A DNA stretch of 64,000 bases from Nannocystis sp. RBIL2 (lineage in GTDB: Bacteria; Myxococcota_A; Polyangia; Nannocystales; Nannocystaceae): the NCBI RefSeq assembly GCF_026626745.1, contig NZ_JAPNJW010000001.1:908311-972310 (forward strand). Direction: 5' to 3'. Shown one piece after another: positions 18,706-56,529 of this stretch (its first letter is position 1; each line of letters starts with the position of its first letter). The notes below the pieces were generated by a model. That model was not told the DNA's origin. It ran no database searches and saw only the letters and a program-made list of their open reading frames with translations. The position numbers were made by a program, and so were the translations under genes.

Positions 18706-18968
18706 CGCCGAAAGCTCGCGAGAAAGCGTCGATGCGACGGCCAGCCCTGGCCGTCGCATCGACGCCGACGTCCTGCCTTTCGGGCGCGCTCCCGAACGGA
18801 GCCGAGTCCGGCGCGGCGGCTCCTCACGGCTGCAGCCGTGCCCGGGGTCCGGGGAAGGGCCGGCCGCGAATTAGAGACAGGATGGGCGCGAGGAACGAGC
18901 GTCCATCCTGTCGGTCAACTCGCGGCCGGACCTTCCCCGGACCCCCCGCGAGGCGCAGCCGGCAATTA
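18706..18968 (-). ncRNA. candidate structured RNA / 3'-UTR-terminator module, copy 1 of a duplicated roughly 260-bp element
   Basis: It is about 80% identical to 48651-48909 and contains four hairpins. The differences between copies are compensatory, for example a 15-bp stem cgatgcgacggccag/ctggccgtcgcatcg versus ctgttcggcggccag/ctggccgccgaacag. It begins 28 bp after the pfkB-family gene stop on the minus strand. On the minus strand it ends in a GC hairpin followed by CGCUUUCUCGCG. Confidence 0.4.
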
Positions 18969-18996
18969 GCGAAGCCCCCGCGCTACTCCCCGAGCC

Positions 18997-30193: not shown

Positions 30194-31891
<1,698 letters not shown>

Positions 31892-33749: not shown

Positions 33750-35786
33750 GTGCCACGCGCTCGCGCCACGCTCTGCACCTGCCTCGCGGCGTGCCTGTGG
33801 GCCTCGCCCGGCCAGGCCGCGCCCGCGGTGGTCCCCCCGAGCCCGCGGACCCGCGTCGACGCCGTCTATCCGCTCGCCGAGGCGCGCAGCGACGCCGTCG
33901 CGGTCGAGCTGGCCGTCACCGTCGAGGCCGACGGCCGGGTCGGCGCCGTCGAGGTCCTGAAGAGCGGCGGCGCGGCCTTCGACGACGCCGCAGTCGCCGC
34001 GGTCAAGCAGTGGCGGTTCGACCCGGCGCGCCGCGACGACGTCGCGGTGGCCGTCAAGATCCGCGTGCCCTTCAACTTCGCCCCGCCGGCCCAGCCCGCC
34101 GAGGCGCCCGCGGGTGAACCTGCCCCTTCGGCCCCACCCGGACAACCTGGCCCTTCGGCCAGCCCGCCAGGTCCGTCGCAACCTGCCCCTCCGGACAGCC
34201 AGCCGGGCCCGTCTCAACCCGCCCCTTCAGCCGGCCAGCCAGGCCCGTCTCAACCTGCCCCTTCGGCCAGCCCCACCCGACCTGCCCCCTCGGACAGCCA
34301 GCCGGGCCCGTCGCAACCTGCCCCTTCGGCCAGCCAGCCCGAGCCGGTGCTCGACGTCGCCGCGCGCAGCCGCCGGCCGCCGCCGCGGGCCGCCAGCGAC
34401 TTCGTCGTCGAGCGCGACGTCCTCGCCGCCCCGCCGCGGCAGAGCGCCGCCGACATGCTGAGCAGCGCCCCCGGCGTCTACGTCGCGCGGGCCGAGGGCG
34501 AGGCCGTCGCGCACGAGATCACCCTGCGCGGCTTCAACGCGGCGCACGGCCAGGACATCGAGATCACCGCCGGCGCCTTGCCGCTGAACCAGGTCTCGCA
34601 CCTGCACGGCCAGGGCTACGCCGACCTCAACTGGATCGTCCCCGAGACGGTGCGATCGATCCGCGTCACCGAGGGCGTCTACGACCCGCGGCAGGGCGAC
34701 TTCGCGGTCGCCGGCAGCATCGACTTCGACCTCGCCGTCCCGCGCCGCGGCATCCAGCTGCGCAGCACCGGCGGCTCCTTCGCCACCTTCCGCCAGCTCG
34801 TCCTGTGGGCCCCCAAGGGTCAGGACGACGAGACCTTCGCCGCCGCCGCGGTCCGCCGCACCCGCGGCTTCGGCATGAACCGCGGCGGCCTCTCGGGCAT
34901 GGCCATGGGCCAGTTCGCCTTCTCGGCCGCGGGCGGCTGGCGCGGCAAGGTCCACGTCGCCGCCTACGCCGCGCGGGCCGGCCTCGCCGGCGTCCTGCGC
35001 CGGGACGACGTCGCCGCCGGCGCCGTCGGCTTCTACGACAGCTACGGCGACCCCTCGGCCAACAGTCAGTCCGCCTCGGCCGCGCGCGGCCACCTCTCGC
35101 TCGAGCTCCAGCGCCGCGGCGAGGGCGGGGCGGTCACCCGCATGGCCGTGTGGACCGCCCTCGTCGACTTCCACAGCCGCGAGAACTTCACCGGCTACAC
35201 CCAGCGCGGCGTCGTCATGCCGCAGTGGGTCGGCCGCGGCGACCTCATCGAGCAGCAGAACCGCGACTTCGGCGGCGGCATGCGCCTGTCCCATCGGACA
35301 GCCGGCTGGCGCCCCGCCCCGTGGTTCCACGCCGCCCTCGAGGTCGGCGCGGCCGCGCGGATCCACAACATCCAGCAGGCGCAGAACCTCTTGCAAGCGC
35401 CGCAGAACGAGACCTGGGACCGGCGCGTCGACGCCACCGTGCTCGCCAGCGACGTCGGCCTCTACGGCGACCTCGACCTCCGCTTCGGCAAGCGCGTGCG
35501 CTTGCGCGGCGGCGGTCGGGCCGACGTCCTCCACTACGACATCGACGACCGCCTCGGCAACTTCATCGCCCCCTACCAGATCGAGAGCCACCTCGTCGGC
35601 CACCGCCGCACCGCCACCGGCGTGGCCGCCGGCCCGCGCGTCAGCCTCGAGGTCGCGCCTGTCCCTTGGGTCAGCCTGTTCGCCGCCTACGGCCAGGGCT
35701 ACCGCTCGCCGCAGGCGCGCCAGCTCGACGAGGGCGAGCGGGCTCCGTTCGCCAAGGTCCACAGCACCGAGGCGGCGTGCGCATGA
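33750..35786 (+). CDS. TonB-dependent receptor-like protein with N-terminal TonB-C-like domain and Pro-rich repeat linker (N-terminal 678-aa portion)
   Basis: It has a GTG start and signal peptide. The N-terminus carries a TonB C-terminal-like domain (YPLAEARSDAVAVELAVTVEADGRVGAVEVLKSGGAAFDDAAVAAVKQWRFDPARRDDVAV). Six 36-bp PAPSASQPGPSQ repeats follow, then plug-like motifs (MLSSAPGVYVARAEG...ITLRGFNA) and beta-barrel strands. The frame ends at TGA 35784-35786. Confidence 0.65.
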   Translation: MPRARATLCTCLAACLWASPGQAAPAVVPPSPRTRVDAVYPLAEARSDAVAVELAVTVEADGRVGAVEVLKSGGAAFDDAAVAAVKQWRFDPARRDDVAVAVKIRVPFNFAPPAQPAEAPAGEPAPSAPPGQPGPSASPPGPSQPAPPDSQPGPSQPAPSAGQPGPSQPAPSASPTRPAPSDSQPGPSQPAPSASQPEPVLDVAARSRRPPPRAASDFVVERDVLAAPPRQSAADMLSSAPGVYVARAEGEAVAHEITLRGFNAAHGQDIEITAGALPLNQVSHLHGQGYADLNWIVPETVRSIRVTEGVYDPRQGDFAVAGSIDFDLAVPRRGIQLRSTGGSFATFRQLVLWAPKGQDDETFAAAAVRRTRGFGMNRGGLSGMAMGQFAFSAAGGWRGKVHVAAYAARAGLAGVLRRDDVAAGAVGFYDSYGDPSANSQSASAARGHLSLELQRRGEGGAVTRMAVWTALVDFHSRENFTGYTQRGVVMPQWVGRGDLIEQQNRDFGGGMRLSHRTAGWRPAPWFHAALEVGAAARIHNIQQAQNLLQAPQNETWDRRVDATVLASDVGLYGDLDLRFGKRVRLRGGGRADVLHYDIDDRLGNFIAPYQIESHLVGHRRTATGVAAGPRVSLEVAPVPWVSLFAAYGQGYRSPQARQLDEGERAPFAKVHSTEAACA

Positions 35787-36412: not shown

Positions 36413-36469
36413 CCGCCTGTCCTCTCGGACTTCCCCGCGACTCGCGCTCGCAGCCGAAGTTTTCGCCCC

Positions 36470-36760
36470 GCATCGCCTTCCGACTCCGCGCGCCTCTCCG
36501 CCGCCTGCCCTCGGAGCCCGTTCCCGACCACCGCTTCCCCACGCGCATCGCCGCCCGACTCCGCGCCCTCTCCGCCGCCTGCCCTCGGAGCCCGTCCCCG
36601 AACGTCGCTTCCCCTCGCGCATCGCCGCCCGCTCCACGCCTCACATGAGTCGCCGCCCTCTCCATCGGGCCCGCCGCACCGACCCTCATCGCTCCTCACC
36701 CCGCCTCGCCTCATCAGCTGTCCCTTCGCACCTGTCCTCTCGCACCTGTCCCTTGTTACC
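36470..36760. repeat. tandem roughly 70-bp direct repeats (2.5 copies) plus three CTGTCC half-site units between receptor and lipoprotein genes
   Basis: The unit gcatcgcc...ccgcctgccctcggagcccgt(t/c)cccga...cgcttcccc repeats at 36470, 36541 and 36611. It is followed by cagctgtcccttcgcacctgtcctctcgcacctgtcccttg. Confidence 0.6.
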
Positions 36761-36773
36761 GGCCCTTTCGCCC

Positions 36774-37502
36774 ATGTCCCTCCGACCAGCCATGCTCCTC
36801 CTGCTCTGCGCCGCCTGCGGCGCCACCGGCGAGCCGGCCTTTCAGGCCCCGCTGCGGGCGCGAGGGGCCGCGGCCGAGCTGACCGCGGGCGCCTGGACAG
36901 TGACCCTCACGCGAGCAGAAGTCGGCCTCGGCCCGCTCTACCTGTGCGCCACCGCGGCCGCCTCCTCCGAGCTGTGCGCCACCGCGGCCGCCGAGTTCGC
37001 AGCGGTCGCCCCCGTCGACCTGCTCGACCTCGGCCCGCAGCCGCTCGGCGAGCTCGACGTCCTGCCCGGCCAGGTCCGCTCGGCCATGCTCGACTACGGC
37101 GTCACCTGGCTCAAGACGCAGGCCAAGCCGGGCGCTCAGGACGGCGCGCCGGGCCGGCGCGCCGCCCGGTTCGCCGGCACGGCTGTCTCTGCGGACATGT
37201 CCTTCGAGTTCACCGCCGACCTCGACGTCGCCCCCGTGCTCCGCGGCAGCCGCACCATCGAGGGCCTGCGGATCGGCCCCTTCGACCTCGACGTCGGCGG
37301 CGCGCTCGACGTCACGATCGACGGCGCCGCCTGGTGGGCCGGCGTCGAATTCGACGCCCTCGCCGCGCTCGGCCCCGGCCCGCACGACCTCGCCGCCCTG
37401 GCCGCCGAAGATCCGGCCTCGCCCGCCGCCGACGCCCTGGCCGCCGTCCGCTTCGCCATGATCGCCGTCCCGCCGCGGTTCGCCTGGACCGCCGAGGAAT
37501 GA
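36774..37502 (+). CDS. hypothetical lipoprotein in the TonB-system cluster
   Basis: MSLRPAMLLLLCAACGATG gives a lipobox. The protein is 242 aa, and the exbB start follows 5 nt after its stop. Confidence 0.55.
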   Translation: MSLRPAMLLLLCAACGATGEPAFQAPLRARGAAAELTAGAWTVTLTRAEVGLGPLYLCATAAASSELCATAAAEFAAVAPVDLLDLGPQPLGELDVLPGQVRSAMLDYGVTWLKTQAKPGAQDGAPGRRAARFAGTAVSADMSFEFTADLDVAPVLRGSRTIEGLRIGPFDLDVGGALDVTIDGAAWWAGVEFDALAALGPGPHDLAALAAEDPASPAADALAAVRFAMIAVPPRFAWTAEE

Positions 37503-41759: not shown

Positions 41760-41860
41760 CTTGAAGGGCAGGTCCTCCGGGGCATGCTCCGGAGGACAGG
41801 CTCTTCAGGACATGCTCCCAAGGCCAGGCCCCGCGCCCGCTCCCGACCGCAGAGCGCCCC

Positions 41861-46748: not shown

Positions 46749-48335
46749 GTGAGACGACCCGTGCCCACTTCCCGAACGCACCGCAGCCCGATCGCCTCCG
46801 CGGCGAGGGCCTGCCTCGCCGTGGTTCTCACCTGTCCTTTCGTACACCTCGGCTGCCTCCTCGATCCCAGCCCGCTGGGCGAGCTCCCGGGCGACACCGA
46901 CGGCCCTGACACCGTCGAGCTCGATACCCTCGTCGTCACCTCGCAGCACGTCGACGACACCACCGTCGGTCCGCTGCCGACCACCACCGCCGAGCCGGGC
47001 ACCACCGGCGACCCGCCCGACGGCACCACCGGTGAGCCCGTCACCACCGGCGACGATCCGCCGCCGGAGACCGGCTGCATCGACGGCGGCGCCTGCGAGC
47101 AGCTCGACGTCCTGTTCGTCATCGACAACTCCGGCACCATGGGCGAGGAGCAGAGCCAGCTCGCCGACAGCTTCCCTGCCTTCGTCTCGCTGCTGCGCGG
47201 CCTCAGCGACGCCAACGGTCAGCTCGTCGGCGCCGACGTGCACATCATGGTCACCACCACCGACGTGCCGCACCCGCTGTGCACGCCGTTCGAGAAGCCC
47301 GACTACGACGCCGCCGACGGCCAGCCGATCGACACCCCGTGCACCGACCGGCTGGCGCGGTTTACCGGCCTCGGCGCCGATCCGCCGGTGATGTCCGAGA
47401 TCTGCACCTCGCGCTGCTCCGAGGCCGCCCCCTCGATCCCCACCGATCCGTTCATCCGCTTCAGCCCCACCAGCCACAACATCATCGACCCTGACGGCAT
47501 GGGCGACCCCGCGGCCGACGCCCTCGCCTGCATCGGCCCCCAGGGCATCGACGGCTGCGGCATGGAGTCGCCGCTCGAGGCCATGCTGCGCGCGCTCGAC
47601 CTCGAGGCGCGGTGGAACATCGGCGAGCGGCCCTTCTTGCGCCCCGGCGCCCCGCTGGCGGTCGTCCTCGTCACCGACGAGACCGACTGCTCCACCCTCA
47701 ACTTCGCCTACTTCGACCCCAAGCTGCACGACGACCCCGAGTTCAGCAAGTACTGGCCGTCCCACCCGAGCAGCGGCCAGCGGACCGAGCCCACCAGCGC
47801 CGTGTGCTGGAACGCCGGCATGACCTGCGCCGACGACGACGACGACGGCGAGTACGAGTGGTGCATGTCCGAGGACAAGCACGTCCTCCAGCCCGTCGCC
47901 CGCTACACCGAGGCCCTCGCCGGCCTGCGCCAGCTCCACGGCAAAGAAGTCGTCATGCTCGTCCTCGGCGGCGTCCCTCAGGTCACCGAGCACAACCAAG
48001 CCCCTCCGTTCGAGCCCCTCGTCGGCGGCGTCGACGCCCTCGTCTACCGCGACTGGCAGCCCGACGACATCCTCCCCGGCGACAGCGACACCCCCGCCGA
48101 CAAGCAGTTCGAGTTCGGCATCGGCCCCGGCTGCGTCGGCCCCGCCGGCCAGGCCGTCCCGCCCGGGCGGATCCAGGAAGTCTGCCAGTCGCTCGACATC
48201 CCCGACGACCCCGACACCGCCGTCAACGAACGCGCCATGCGCTGCTGCATCGAGTCCGTCTGCGACAGCGACTACACCCCCGCCCTCGGCTGCCTCGCCG
48301 GCATGCTGCAGCCGACCCTCCACGCCATGCCCTGA
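46749..48335 (+). CDS. hypothetical secreted vWA-like protein, last gene of the ECF operon
   Basis: It has a signal peptide, a T/P/G-rich linker and a DxSxT context (LFVIDNSGTMGEEQSQL) with many Cys pairs. The N-terminal signal-peptide codons contain a hairpin-family unit (ctcacctgtcctttcgtacacctc). Confidence 0.6.
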   Translation: MRRPVPTSRTHRSPIASAARACLAVVLTCPFVHLGCLLDPSPLGELPGDTDGPDTVELDTLVVTSQHVDDTTVGPLPTTTAEPGTTGDPPDGTTGEPVTTGDDPPPETGCIDGGACEQLDVLFVIDNSGTMGEEQSQLADSFPAFVSLLRGLSDANGQLVGADVHIMVTTTDVPHPLCTPFEKPDYDAADGQPIDTPCTDRLARFTGLGADPPVMSEICTSRCSEAAPSIPTDPFIRFSPTSHNIIDPDGMGDPAADALACIGPQGIDGCGMESPLEAMLRALDLEARWNIGERPFLRPGAPLAVVLVTDETDCSTLNFAYFDPKLHDDPEFSKYWPSHPSSGQRTEPTSAVCWNAGMTCADDDDDGEYEWCMSEDKHVLQPVARYTEALAGLRQLHGKEVVMLVLGGVPQVTEHNQAPPFEPLVGGVDALVYRDWQPDDILPGDSDTPADKQFEFGIGPGCVGPAGQAVPPGRIQEVCQSLDIPDDPDTAVNERAMRCCIESVCDSDYTPALGCLAGMLQPTLHAMP

Positions 48336-48414
48336 AGGACATGCTCCACAGGCCATGTCCTCGGCGACATGGCCTTCAAGCATGCCCTTCAGACCATGCG
48401 CACGGAAGCGACCC

Positions 48415-48640
48415 CCGACTCACCGCCCGGCGACCGCCAGCCCGCCTCGCGCCGTGATGTCCACGCGCCGCCGCCCCCCGACCGCCAGCCGGCGCCGCGC
48501 CGTGATGCCCACGCGCCGACACCCCCCGATTGCCAGCCCGCGCCGCGCCGTGATGCTCACGCGCCTCCGCCCCACGACCGCCAGCCCTCACCGCGCCACG
48601 ACGCCGCGCCGCGCCACGACCCGCAGTCCCTCGCCGCGCG
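48415..48640. repeat. about 3.5 tandem copies of a 60-bp direct repeat
   Basis: The unit gaccgccagcc(c/g)gc(c/g)ycgcgccgtgatg(y)ycacgcgcc...cccc(c) repeats head to tail between the vWA-like gene and element copy 2. Confidence 0.6.
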
Positions 48641-48650
48641 GAGATGCCAC

Positions 48651-48909
48651 GCCGAAAGGACGCGAGAAAGCGTCTGTTCGGCGGCCAGCCCTGGCCGCCG
48701 AACAGGCGCCCCAGCTCTGCTCCCGACGACTGCCGCCAGCGAAGCCGAGGCGGCGTGGCGGCTTCTCACGGCTGCAGCCGTGCCAGGGGTCCGGGGAAGG
48801 GGCGGCCGCGAATTAGAGGCGAGATGGGCGCGAGGCACGAGCGTCCATCCCGCCGGTTAACTCGCGGCCGCTCCTTCCCCGGACCCCCCGCGAGGCGCAG
48901 TCGGCAATA
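48651..48909 (-). ncRNA. candidate structured RNA / 3'-UTR-terminator module, copy 2
   Basis: It is the homolog of 18706-18968 with covarying stems. It begins 16 bp after the stop (48925) of the minus-strand hydrolase gene. In this copy the a/c mismatch on the plus strand of one stem would be a U.G wobble on the minus strand. Confidence 0.4.
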
Positions 48910-48924
48910 CGCGAACCAGAGCAC

Positions 48925-53536: not shown

Positions 53537-53561
53537 AAGGAGCACGAGTCATGAAGCGCCA

Positions 53562-54933
53562 TCAACTCAGCCGTCGCACCCTGCTCCGCGGCGTCGCCGG
53601 GGGCACCTCCGTCGCGCTCGCGCTCCCGCTGCTCGAGGCCATGCTCAACTCGAACGGCACCGCCCACGCCGATGGCACCGCCCTGCCGCGGCGCATGATC
53701 ACCTGGCACTTCGGCAACGGCGTCGCCCTCGTCGACCCCGCCGACGTCGGCAAGGGCAACCGCTGGGCCCCCGCCGAGACCGGCCCGGGCTACCCGCTGA
53801 CCCCGCAGCTGGCCGCGCTCGAGGGCGTGCGCGACTACTGCAACCTGCTCACCGGCTTCGACATCAAGGCCTCCTCGAAGCACCGCCGCGGCCACCACGA
53901 CGGCTGCGCCGGCTTCTTCTCCGGCTTCCCGTTCATCGAGCTGCCGCACGCCGAGAACAGCTACTCGTCGAAGTTCGGCGGCCCCTCGATCGACCAGGTC
54001 GCCGCCGCCGCCGTCGGCGGTCAGACCTTCCTGCCGTCGCTGCAGCTCGCGGTGTCGAAGCGGGTCATCACCGGCGAGGGCCCGACCCTGCAGTACCTCT
54101 CGCACAAGGGCCCGGACCAGCCGCTGCCGCCGTTCTTCAACCCGCAGGAGGCGTTCGCCGCCCTGTTCGAGAGCTTCGTCCCGCCCGACGACCCGACCAA
54201 GGGCCCGCGCGTCGACATCCTCGACGCAGTGCGCGAGGACGTGAAGGCGCTCAAGCTGCGGGTCGGCAGCGCCGACAAGCTCCGCCTCGACGCCCACCTC
54301 GCCAGCGTCGAGCAGATCAAGAAGCAGATCGAGACCCTGCCGCCGGCCTGCACCCTGCCGGGCATGCCGATCGAGACCAACATGGACATCGACGGCGCCG
54401 AGCCGATCGAGCTCGTCAACGCGGCCATGGTCGAGATCATCATCGAGGCGTTCCGCTGCGACCTGACACGGATCGTCAGCATCCAGTTCTCGGGCTCGGT
54501 CGGCTACCACGTCTTCAAGAGCCTCGGCCACGCCAAGGGTCACCACGACATGACCCACGACACCGCCGACAACGAGGCGGTCGACCAGTCCACGATCAAG
54601 ACCGTCGAGTGCTTCGCGGTCCTTCTCAACCGCCTCAAGGAGTCGGTCGAGGGCGACGGCAACCTGCTCGACAACTCGTGCGTGATCCTCGGCAGCGACG
54701 CCGCCTCGGGCTACACCCACAGCGTGTTCGACCAGCCGTGCATCGTCGCCGGCCGCGGCGGCGGCACCCTGCGCTACCCCGCCGAGCACTACCACTCGCA
54801 GTCGAGCGAGAACACCTCCGACATCCTGCTCGCCTGCCTGCAGTCGGTCGTGCCGGAGGCCACCGAGGTCGGCGCCACCAACGCCGACGGCGACGGCTAC
54901 TCCAACACCCCGTGCGCCGCCCTCCTGGCCTGA
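53562..54933 (+). CDS. DUF1552-domain protein with Tat signal
   Basis: AAAGGAG RBS and a twin-arginine signal (LSRRTLLRGVAGG). It is the usual partner gene found immediately downstream of DUF1592 proteins. Confidence 0.8.
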
Positions 54934-54936
54934 GAG

Positions 54937-55170
54937 ACATCTAAAACTGTCCGCAAGGACAGCCCGCGCGGCGAGGTCGGCTCACCCGGCCTCGCCGCAG
55001 TCGCGACGTCCGGTCCACTCTCGAGACCGCCGCCGCCGCGCATCACCTGTCCCGCAGGACAGCCTTCGATCGACCGGCGCGCGGCGGCGAGCGCTCCTGA
55101 CCTGCCCTCAAGGACAGCCGCCGACCCTCCCTTGCGAGCGCGCCACCCCCCTCCGCACCACCTGACGTGC
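54937..55170. repeat. hairpin-family units plus a 9-bp GC stem-loop downstream of the DUF1552 gene
   Basis: actgtccgcaaggacagcc (54947), the perfect stem gcggcgagg/cctcgccgc (54967-54997), catcacctgtcccgcaggacagcc (55041) and gacctgccctcaaggacagcc (55099). Confidence 0.55.
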
Positions 55171-55481
55171 AGGACATCTGACCGCCCGACCCGCGAGGAC
55201 CGGGGCGGGGGTGATCTACGGCCGCCGGCCCCCCAGGCCCCCGGATGCCCCCAGACCAAGGGGGATTTCTCGCCGTCCGGCGCCATTCGCGCAACCCCGC
55301 GCGACGCCAAACCGCCGCGGAGGTGGCCCTGCGGCCGCTTTCGCGGAACGCGTGTAACCCGCGACGCACACGTGCCCGTGGAACGGCAGGACCGCTTTCT
55401 CGCCGACTCCCCACCGATCGGACCCCGGCTCCATGTAGTGTGGTCTTGCTCGCTGATCGCGGCCCCGAGAGGCACACCGAG

Positions 55482-55865
55482 ATGAACCTGAAAGACGTGA
55501 ATTCGACCCTCACCGAGATCGAAGACGGCCTGATGGGCGGCCTCGCCACCATCGACGTCTTCAGCAAGACGTCCGGTATGTCGGTCGCCGGCATCCGCAG
55601 CTCGCCCAAGGCGTGCGCCCTCTTCAACATCCTCTGTGAACGAATCACGGAGGCGCTCAAGAAGTCCCAGCTGCCGGTGCCCGACTTCGTCTATCAGACG
55701 CTCCTACGCCTCGGCGAGGAGGGCAACGTCATGATCATCGTCGTCGACCTGACCGACAAGTACCGCATGGGCATGGCCGTCGACTGCATCAAGGCGCCGC
55801 TCGGCATCCTCGTCAGCGTCGTCCTCCCGGACACCATCCCGCGGCTCCGCAACTCGCTGCGCTGA
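55482..55865 (+). CDS. small hypothetical protein (127 aa), weak roadblock/LC7-like resemblance
   Basis: GAGAGG RBS and an ORF with acceptable coding bias, with GC slightly below its neighbours. The DGLMGGLATIDVF...GMSVAGI pattern is reminiscent of roadblock/MglB-like folds, though this is not secure. It is flanked on both sides by hairpin arrays. Confidence 0.45.
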   Translation: MNLKDVNSTLTEIEDGLMGGLATIDVFSKTSGMSVAGIRSSPKACALFNILCERITEALKKSQLPVPDFVYQTLLRLGEEGNVMIIVVDLTDKYRMGMAVDCIKAPLGILVSVVLPDTIPRLRNSLR

Positions 55866-55959
55866 ACCGCGCCCGAGCCCCGTCCGCCCGGCGTCCTGCG
55901 ACTCCGGGCGGCTTCGTCGCGACCGCGCCCCGACGTCGCATCTCGGGTAGCGCCGGCTC

Positions 55960-56122
55960 GCCTGTCTGAAGAGACAGCCCGCCATGAAGCGCGGAGCGCC
56001 TGTCCGAAGCGACAGCCAAGCGCGGACCACCTGTCCGAAGAGACAGCCCATCACAGCCGCGAGCACCTGTCCGAAACGACAGCCCCTTCACGACCGAAGA
56101 GCGCCTGTCCGAAGCGACAGCC
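55960..56122. repeat. tandem array of five CTGTC-(c)GAAG(n)-GACAG hairpin units (period 31-38 bp)
   Basis: gcctgtctgaagagacagcc, cgcctgtccgaagcgacagcc, cacctgtccgaagagacagccc, cacctgtccgaaacgacagccc and cgcctgtccgaagcgacagcc, separated by related 12-19-nt spacers. Confidence 0.7.
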
Positions 56123-56148
56123 GCTACCCTCGGCTCACCGCGCCCCGC

Positions 56149-56529
56149 TCACTCCACGCCCGCCGCCTCGCGCCGCGCCGACCAGCGCAGCAGCGAATCG
56201 AGGGTCGGGCACAGCGACTGGCCCCAATCGGTCAGGCGATATTCGACGCGCGGAGGCACCTCGCCGAACACCTCGCGCTGCACCAATCCGTCGCTCTCGA
56301 GCCGGCGCAGCTGCTGCGCCAGCATCTTCTGTGACACCTCCGGAATGGCGCGTTCGAGCTCCGAGTAGCGCAGCACCTTGCCGCCGAACAGGTTGAACAA
56401 GATCCGCAGCTTCCAGCGCCCCTCGAGCAGCGCCAGCGCCTCGCTCACCGCCTCGGCCGCCGTCTCCGGCGTCAGCGGCTCGGACTTACCTGCGGGTGAG
56501 TGGCTGACTTTTTCGTGCGTACTTGTCAC
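56149..56529 (-). CDS. HxlR-family winged-helix transcriptional regulator
   Basis: ALALLEGRWKLRILFNLFGGKVLRYSELERAIPEVSQKMLAQQLRRLESDGLVQREV matches the HxlR/MarR-like wHTH core. It has a GTG start and lies divergent to an SDR gene. Confidence 0.8.
   Translation of the reverse strand: MTSTHEKVSHSPAGKSEPLTPETAAEAVSEALALLEGRWKLRILFNLFGGKVLRYSELERAIPEVSQKMLAQQLRRLESDGLVQREVFGEVPPRVEYRLTDWGQSLCPTLDSLLRWSARREAAGVE

Follow-up and report, generated by a model that had tools for sequence, protein, structure and literature searches.

The 64-kb stretch of Nannocystis sp. RBIL2 DNA analysed here (the window) carries an array of short hairpin repeats among genes for a DUF1552 protein, a predicted Roadblock-fold protein, an HxlR-type regulator and an SDR protein. 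The DUF1552 (HXXSHH) gene (plus strand, 53551..54933) lies upstream of a 127-aa gene (plus strand, 55482..55865), which is convergent with the HxlR gene (minus strand, 56149..56529; PF01638, E 6e-30), and between the stop codons of these last two (55865 and 56149) five units of CCTGTCYGAARMGACAGCC occupy 55961-56122. All five match CCTGTCCGAAGCGACAGCC with at most two mismatches each, and their starts are 38, 31, 36 and 38 bp apart. The original prediction of five tandem units with a 31-38-bp period was borne out, as the window contains 6 matches to CCTGTCCGAAGCGACAGCC at ≤3 mismatches where shuffled sequences lead one to expect 0.04; the sixth lies on the minus strand at 37181-37199. We scored the units with R1, a covariance model of the repeat family that was trained on 118 copies, all from other genomes. 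Unit 1 (CCTGTCTGAAGAGACAGCC, 55961..55979) has a 6-bp stem with a GAAG loop and scores 18.8 bits on the plus and 16.6 on the minus strand, and unit 2 (CCTGTCCGAAGCGACAGCC, 55999..56017) has a 5-bp stem with a 6-nt loop, as do four of the five units, and scores 18.0 bits on the minus and 14.4 on the plus strand. Unit 3 (CCTGTCCGAAGAGACAGCC, 56030..56048) is the best of the five (22.5 bits, plus strand, E ~0.001) and is followed by unit 4 (CCTGTCCGAAACGACAGCC, 56066..56084; 16.9 bits, plus strand) and unit 5 (CCTGTCCGAAGCGACAGCC, 56104..56122; 19.5 bits, minus strand), whose end is 27 nt from the stop codon of the HxlR gene on the opposite strand. On their better strand the units thus score 17–22.5 bits, and as units 2 and 5 favour the minus strand the orientation of the array is ambiguous.

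The regular alternation of repeat and spacer, together with a 116-aa ORF (55984-56334) that spans the array, could be taken to indicate a degenerate or miniature CRISPR array or a coding repeat region. CRISPR arrays have repeats of 23–55 bp, unique spacers of like length, a leader and usually cas genes, a description that does not apply to the array: its repeats measure 19–21 bp, its spacers are 12–19 bp long and resemble one another, and solitary copies of this repeat are scattered over the genome, which upholds the earlier judgement that this is not CRISPR. A coding role is contradicted by the 38, 31, 36 and 38 bp periods, which break the reading frame, unlike those of the coding arrays of the same family, and by a codon-usage gene model (trained on the genes called in loci L001, L002 and L004, and reproducing the called genes of L001) that shows no coding signal here. 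We therefore reject both readings, the chance of either being negligible. Taken as 31-nt stretches of core plus spacer, the units are 74–90% identical to one another, and both the similarity of the spacers and the 31-38-bp period would be explained if clusters grow by tandem duplication of whole units.

On the other side of the small gene, three more units had been predicted and are present, accompanied by a weak fourth. The first (CTGTCCGCAAGGACAGCC, 54947..54964, plus strand) begins 14 nt after the DUF1552 stop codon, has a perfect 6-bp stem with a GCAA loop (−5.9 kcal/mol as a single-stranded DNA hairpin) and scores 20.5 bits with R1. The second (CACCTGTCCCGCAGGACAGCC, 55044..55064, plus strand, also placed at 55047) is the top match to R1 in the window (29 bits, E 2e-5), the third (GACCTGCCCTCAAGGACAGCC, 55099..55119, plus strand, also placed at 55102) scores 27.2 bits, and the degenerate fourth (CACCTGACGTGCAGGACATC, ~55157..55182, plus strand) reaches 13.8 bits (E 0.23). 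The last codons of the DUF1552 gene and its TGA stop lie within a further degenerate unit (CTGGCCtgagAGACAT, 54927-54942), recognisable in N. punicea too, so that the repeat element appears to supply the end of this reading frame. The predicted 9-bp GC stem also exists and is part of a longer inverted repeat (54968-54980 and 54986-54998; 13-nt arms, one mismatch, 5-nt loop) that forms a GC-rich terminator-like hairpin 3′ of the DUF1552 gene (54968..54998, plus strand) and does not belong to the repeat family. A second terminator-like hairpin, recognised as an inverted repeat and by folding, is located 3′ of the 127-aa gene and upstream of the array (CCGCCCGG...CCGGGCGG then CTTCGTCG, 55884..55911, plus strand). 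A scan for promoters and terminators was of little help, with no promoter-like site and three weak terminator-like matches where 0.9 were expected. The lower GC content attributed to the small gene is real (0.62–0.66 over the ORF and 0.70–0.75 nearby) but is not peculiar to it, since the HxlR gene shows a similar drop, as does the DUF1552 gene in its 3′ half.

The 127-aa ORF is a real gene: its product is 98% identical to a protein of N. punicea and has 93 homologues at 63–98% identity. Pfam returned no match for this protein and a PDB profile search yielded only E>0.3, making structure prediction necessary. The AlphaFold2 model (pLDDT 81, pTM 0.76), an alpha-beta-alpha sandwich with the element order H-E-E-H-E-E-E-H, resembles Roadblock3 (9jue, TM 0.74–0.77) and M. 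xanthus MglB (6izw and 6hjm, TM ~0.7) in a Foldseek search of the PDB (E ~1e-5), and the protein is accordingly modelled as having a Roadblock/LC7/MglB fold, in agreement with the Roadblock/LC7 similarity that the original prediction had suggested looking for by structure. The gene belongs to a multi-copy Nannocystis family with several paralogues per genome, whose members are found next to a response regulator, two ABM-domain genes, ProRS or a tandem second copy. The arrangement ABM (antibiotic biosynthesis monooxygenase-like), 127-aa gene, ABM is conserved in loci L117, L118 and L120, and in a MAG (L124, 4001-4902) a tandem pair of 127-aa genes adjoins a response regulator. Around eight other members of the family we found no arrays, with one or two repeat copies nearby at most. 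The proposal of a repeat island specific to the small gene is thus rejected, as about 35 copies of the repeat occur in the window and the eight other family members are without arrays; a repeat dispersed at one copy per ~1–2 kb says little about the small gene next to which it happens to be arrayed.

The family to which the units belong has the consensus (C)AC-CTGTCC-N4-GGACAG-CC or, derived from 330 copies oriented to the C-rich strand, (C)A-C-CTGTCC-[C/T]NNN-GGACAG-C-C. The element is ~21 nt long, with a 6+4+6 core whose two 6-nt halves are very strongly conserved and whose loop is free, and the position table of the 330 copies confines conservation to positions −3 to +2 around the core. As single-stranded DNA canonical copies have a predicted stability of −4 to −6 kcal/mol. 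The motif CTGTCC-N4-GGACAG occurs 40 times in the window at ≤2 mismatches, against 3.95 expected, and R1 finds 35 distinct sites at E≤0.05, all five array units among them. Perfect 6-bp hairpins of any sequence number 183 in the window and 179–219 in Markov simulations; a general excess of hairpins can therefore be dismissed, and the signal is that of a specific motif. Rfam had no matches in permissive mode on 50–60 kb or in gathering mode on the whole window.

A scan for CACCTGTCCNNNNGGACAGCC across one genome per species (185,579 species) returned at least 112 blocks. Among the 112 listed, 67 are from Nannocystis/Nannocystaceae (N. punicea, exedens, pusilla, bainbridge, radixulma and several MAGs), and the other 45, which are from unrelated phyla, have 47 copies between them, essentially the seeded match alone. 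In loci of Nannocystis punicea, exedens, pusilla and bainbridge that were retrieved without regard to the motif, its density is 0.4–0.9 per kb, where chance would give ~0.06 per kb. More distant relatives (loci L122-L124, L126 and L128) have few copies or none, and neither the scan blocks listed nor the retrieved relatives show enrichment outside the genus Nannocystis. Extrapolation from 0.4–0.9 per kb suggests that an 11–13 Mb genome probably carries several thousand copies. The searchable literature yielded nothing relevant on REP or RAYT elements of Nannocystis or other myxobacteria, an absence that is not proof of novelty, and the repeat family looks undescribed.

The syntenic locus of N. 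punicea lies at ~7.36 Mb of CP114040.1, and in both N. punicea (L001) and N. bainbridge (L125) the order 2′,5′-RNA-ligase, PSD/DUF1592-family, DUF1552, 127-aa, HxlR, SDR and aldehyde dehydrogenase is kept, the coding sequences being 92–96% identical to those of the window. The two loci also keep the pair of GC-rich terminator-like hairpins and, ahead of the small gene, a conserved leader. The arrays differ in number, loop and spacing: 3′ of the 127-aa gene the window has five units with GAAG/GAAA loops 31–38 bp apart, N. punicea three CCTGTCCCCAAGYACAGG units, a single canonical unit and an additional small ORF, and N. bainbridge three units 95–100 bp apart, and upstream of the gene there are three or four, about seven and about three units, respectively. 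The extra ORF of N. punicea (minus strand, 57–72 aa, L001 6634-6849) lies between array and HxlR gene, corresponding to the gap 56122-56149 of the window; neither the window nor N. bainbridge has it, a further sign of frequent rearrangement in this spacer. In more distant relatives synteny stops directly 3′ of the DUF1552 gene, and one such spacer (L126) is without units. The original prediction had held that the repeats would be incidental if the small ORF kept its neighbours in related genomes that lack them. Gene and neighbours are indeed conserved, and repeats are present in the related loci but are not themselves conserved; since the genes stay while the arrays change, the arrays are best regarded as fast-evolving passengers of the spacer.

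With the codon-usage gene model we determined the placement of copies with at most one mismatch in 602 kb, comprising 70 Nannocystis loci and the window. The loci were for the most part selected by presence of the motif, and members of one array are not independent of each other, which inflates the p-values derived from this sample. The 330 copies include 157 in intergenic DNA and 170 inside predicted genes; with 84% of the DNA coding, intergenic DNA is enriched ~5-fold per base. Convergent spacers carry 4.4 copies per kb, co-directional ones 1.5–1.8 and divergent ones 0.37, and the distance from a copy to the nearest stop codon has a median of 58 nt. Neighbouring copies are arranged head-to-tail (91 direct and 4 inverted pairs overall; 48 and 0 among intergenic pairs), and the same loop is found in 30% of adjacent pairs but in 2.5% of random pairs, which points to local duplication. 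We found no transposase or other mobilising enzyme for the repeat in the DNA examined. E. coli RayT, used as a tblastn query on 1.06 Mb of retrieved DNA, gave no credible match, the best (E 0.12) falling within an unrelated 591-aa ORF. In a comparison of filled and empty sites between the window and N. punicea, alignments were messy in the variable spacers, no clean pair of such sites emerged and no target-site duplication was readable.

This placement raises the question of whether the array is a functional 3′ UTR element that protects the mRNA of the 127-aa or HxlR gene from 3′ exonucleases, or that acts as a two-way terminator between the convergent genes. Some E. coli REPs have been shown to act as mRNA 3′-end protectors or two-way terminators, and a position between convergent genes, a family preference for gene 3′ ends and the avoidance of divergent spacers are all what such a role would predict; in published surveys REPs are described as plausibly transcribed RNA elements (PMC3733652). 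The hairpins, however, are weak, with stems of 5–6 bp and stabilities of −2.4 to −5.9 kcal/mol as single-stranded DNA (predicted at −2.4 to −4.4 kcal/mol for the four distinct array-unit sequences), no T-tract follows the array units, and the 283-nt spacer folds only slightly better than its shuffles (z = −2.2 for the plus and −1.4 for the minus strand). Both genes upstream of units already possess stronger GC-rich hairpins of their own that are conserved between species, in contrast to the array units, and half of the family lies within coding sequence. We therefore consider an RNA-level function unlikely, all the more because the orientation of the copies tracks strand skew and not transcription, as set out below.

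The copies inside genes favour one reading frame. Among the co-oriented coding copies, 83 of 110 use the frame CCT-GTC-CNN-NNG-GAC-AGC, which encodes PVPxDS, and 71% of the spacings between adjacent copies are multiples of 3. All 31 of 31 PVPxDS peptides are encoded by CCT-GTC-CCN-NNG-GAC-AGC despite CCT making up just 4.5% of Pro codons, which argues that the peptide is a by-product of the DNA motif and not the reverse. Residues around PVPxDS are rich in Pro, Ala and Ser, and coding tandem arrays have periods of 21, 27, 33, 36... bp. In the window, an array at 34143-34339 encodes, in a TonB-dependent receptor-like protein, the QPAPSxSQPGPS linker that joins the TonB_C domain to the Plug domain, and it differs from its N. 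punicea orthologue by in-frame indels; in a Ser/Thr kinase, two copies at 31525-31589 give rise to EPVPxDT in the C-terminal tail.

The window holds other repeats as well. Arrays of the left half-site only (CACCTGTCCCTTCG and variants), with a 14-nt period, are found at 36718-36781 (plus strand), 41775-41833 (reverse) and 48320-48410; as an inverted partner is missing, multiplication of the conserved half evidently does not require a hairpin. There are two more intergenic tandem repeats, one of 74-bp period at 36469-36660 and one of 48-bp period at 48423-48654, the 74-bp repeat carrying degenerate copies of the element (CCTGCCCTCGGAGCCC) and being absent from the orthologous spacer of N. punicea. 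A second dispersed intergenic repeat of ~260–290 nt is present at 48630-48915 and 18721-18975 of the window and in N. punicea (L071, 6868-7154). Its copies are 80–83% identical and contain a very long hairpin besides one of 18 bp, in which four pair changes are compensatory; Rfam has no match for it, and it could be a MITE or a structured RNA.

The flanks of the element are asymmetric, position −2 being A in 70% of copies and the mirror position +2 being T in 25%, and hence give each copy an orientation. This orientation follows local GC skew, with ratios of 154:11 in negative-skew and 15:78 in positive-skew loci. When only the A/T flank positions of intergenic copies are considered, the ratios are 61:5 and 8:36 (Fisher p = 6e-16, for copies that are not independent). 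Of the 21 clusters in convergent spacers, whose flanking genes impose no direction, 18 agree with the skew, and in co-directional spacers where gene direction and skew are discordant clusters follow skew by 5:1; these counts (18:3 and 5:1) rule out gene direction as the determinant of orientation for intergenic copies. Discordant clusters of coding copies split 10:9. Overall, the asymmetric flanks are on the C-rich strand ~90% of the time irrespective of gene direction. We had also taken up wobble-type variants as a potential indicator of the strand that folds and dropped them, since G-to-A and T-to-C changes are also expected from strand mutation bias.

The GC skew of the window itself is −0.115 (25775 C, 20444 G) and persists in minus-strand genes, whose third-codon-position skew is near zero instead of ~+0.4, which points to a strong mutational bias of the entire strand. 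In the N. punicea and N. pusilla assemblies the sign of the skew flips in megabase-scale blocks, and a skew that is strand-wide and changes sign on this scale is read as replication-associated. Leading strands are usually G-rich, and under this rule the CAC...CC form would lie on the lagging strand. The bias towards the C-rich strand regardless of gene direction suggests that spread or retention of the element is coupled to replication, which may act through hairpins on single-stranded DNA or through a strand-specific enzyme.

A polarity of this kind is also known from protein-binding motifs, and the copies could be sites for an abundant DNA-binding protein (nucleoid- or chromosome-organising, KOPS- or Chi-like) or a DNA-uptake-type signal, kept by selection or molecular drive rather than by transposition. 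The strongly conserved 6+6 core with its free loop would fit a protein-bound site too, as would the frequency of imperfect stems (182 with one mismatch and 159 perfect), the half-site-only arrays with their 14-nt period, and the tolerance of one preferred frame in genes, which is seen with uptake sequences. Against a fixed dimer site, the partner half is complementary in other registers as well (CCTGT-N8-ACAGG in N. punicea), favouring pairing, and paired variants co-occur above expectation, a stem covariation that is modest (odds ratios 3–6) and confounded by whole-unit copying. Moreover, head-to-tail arrays of up to 9 units at irregular spacing are unusual for known polar motifs, and there is no known candidate protein. 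We regard this explanation as quite improbable, and it shares with the RNA element a poorer fit to the weak stems, the non-conservation at the locus, the polarity and the coding copies.

The reading that we favour, and hold to be probable, sees in the array a local cluster of a REP-like palindromic repeat specific to Nannocystis, a cluster that has grown by tandem duplication and is most likely a near-neutral passenger of this spacer. The family is dispersed at roughly one copy per 1–2 kb; copies accumulate in the spacers that follow genes and also, as in-frame insertions, in disordered protein linkers, and clusters would expand and contract by tandem duplication of units of core plus spacer. 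At this locus the units lie past the terminator-like hairpin that is conserved after the 127-aa gene and a short way beyond the HxlR stop codon, and they most likely are near-neutral and serve no purpose specific to the small gene; the most they would do is add weak hairpins to the 3′ ends of two convergent transcripts. A more far-reaching version, to which we give limited but real credence, is that the repeat is active, spreading on single-stranded DNA during replication and, because it is tolerated in one reading frame, perhaps also providing an ongoing source of proline-rich inter-domain linkers or, alternatively, that it is a chromosome-polarity or DNA-uptake signal new to Myxococcota. In the active case spread on single-stranded DNA, by means of an enzyme or of hairpin-driven template switching, would account for the lock to one replication strand.

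In the passenger reading, the array tells little about the Roadblock-fold gene or the HxlR gene, and additional evidence would be needed before similar arrays in Nannocystis are taken for CRISPR, for regulatory islands or for insertion hot spots. In practice the element also gets in the way when Nannocystis genomes are assembled, repeat-masked and searched for genes. If its polarity is replication-coupled, the family offers a tractable case of hairpin repeats shaping spacers and linkers in very large GC-rich genomes, and if the repeat is indeed active it would be a DNA-level driver of protein linker evolution in Nannocystis.

Finally, we compared the family with known systems. REPs are defined by Di Nocera et al. 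2013 (PMC3733652) as 20–40 bp palindromic stem-loop units of high copy number, mainly extragenic and marked by a GTAG/CGTC tag. As described there for the REP/BIME elements of Enterobacteria and Pseudomonas, the Nannocystis repeat is a short palindrome, high-copy, lineage-specific, clustered and fast-changing, and it sits between co-directional or convergent genes, 3′ of coding regions and rarely in promoter spacers (PMC3733652). It is a small palindromic stem-loop at the small and weak end of the range (5-bp stems here, 5–6 bp in the family, element ~21 nt), and it is numerous and dispersed (35 sites in 64 kb; 0.4–0.9 per kb in unselected loci). Its intergenic copies follow the REP placement (4.4 versus 0.37 per kb in convergent and divergent spacers), yet 170 of 330 copies are in coding sequence; intragenic REPs are also noted in the literature (PMC3733652). 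The REP-like character ascribed to the array in the original prediction holds in this sense, through placement at gene 3′ ends and fast turnover. An unpaired GTAG/CGTC tag at one end is absent, the 330 copies having only (C)AC 5′ and CC 3′. Unlike REPINs, which form inverted doublets, the Nannocystis copies are neighbours head-to-tail (91 direct, 4 inverted) with an orientation locked to strand skew, and no RAYT was found in the 1.06 Mb of retrieved DNA. Lacking both the tag and the inverted doublets, the family is not filed by us in the classical REP/REPIN families.

For the copies inside genes, the closest parallel is with the Rickettsia palindromic elements (RPEs), which reportedly (Ogata et al. 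2000) lie in frame in protein-coding genes and are tolerated as extra peptide segments. The Nannocystis palindrome is likewise in frame within genes, with 83 of 110 co-oriented copies in one frame. RPEs are, however, 100–150 bp long and inserted singly, whereas the present element is ~21 nt long and forms in-frame tandem arrays that yield Pro/Ser/Ala-rich inter-domain linkers. With IS200/IS605-type elements the family shares behaviour only, namely a basis in hairpins and a replication-related orientation bias, IS608 and ISDra2 targeting the lagging-strand template (PMC6006769). It differs from them in having no identified transposase gene, cleavage site or target site. KOPS, Chi and DUS/USS are short, genus-specific motifs with thousands of copies in coding and non-coding DNA, the polar ones among them strand-biased, and in each of these respects the Nannocystis motif resembles them; in contrast to it, they are not known to be free-loop hairpins or to form tandem arrays. 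Among REP-like elements, the family is thus unusual in its head-to-tail arrays, in its ~90% skew-tied orientation and in its many in-frame linker copies.
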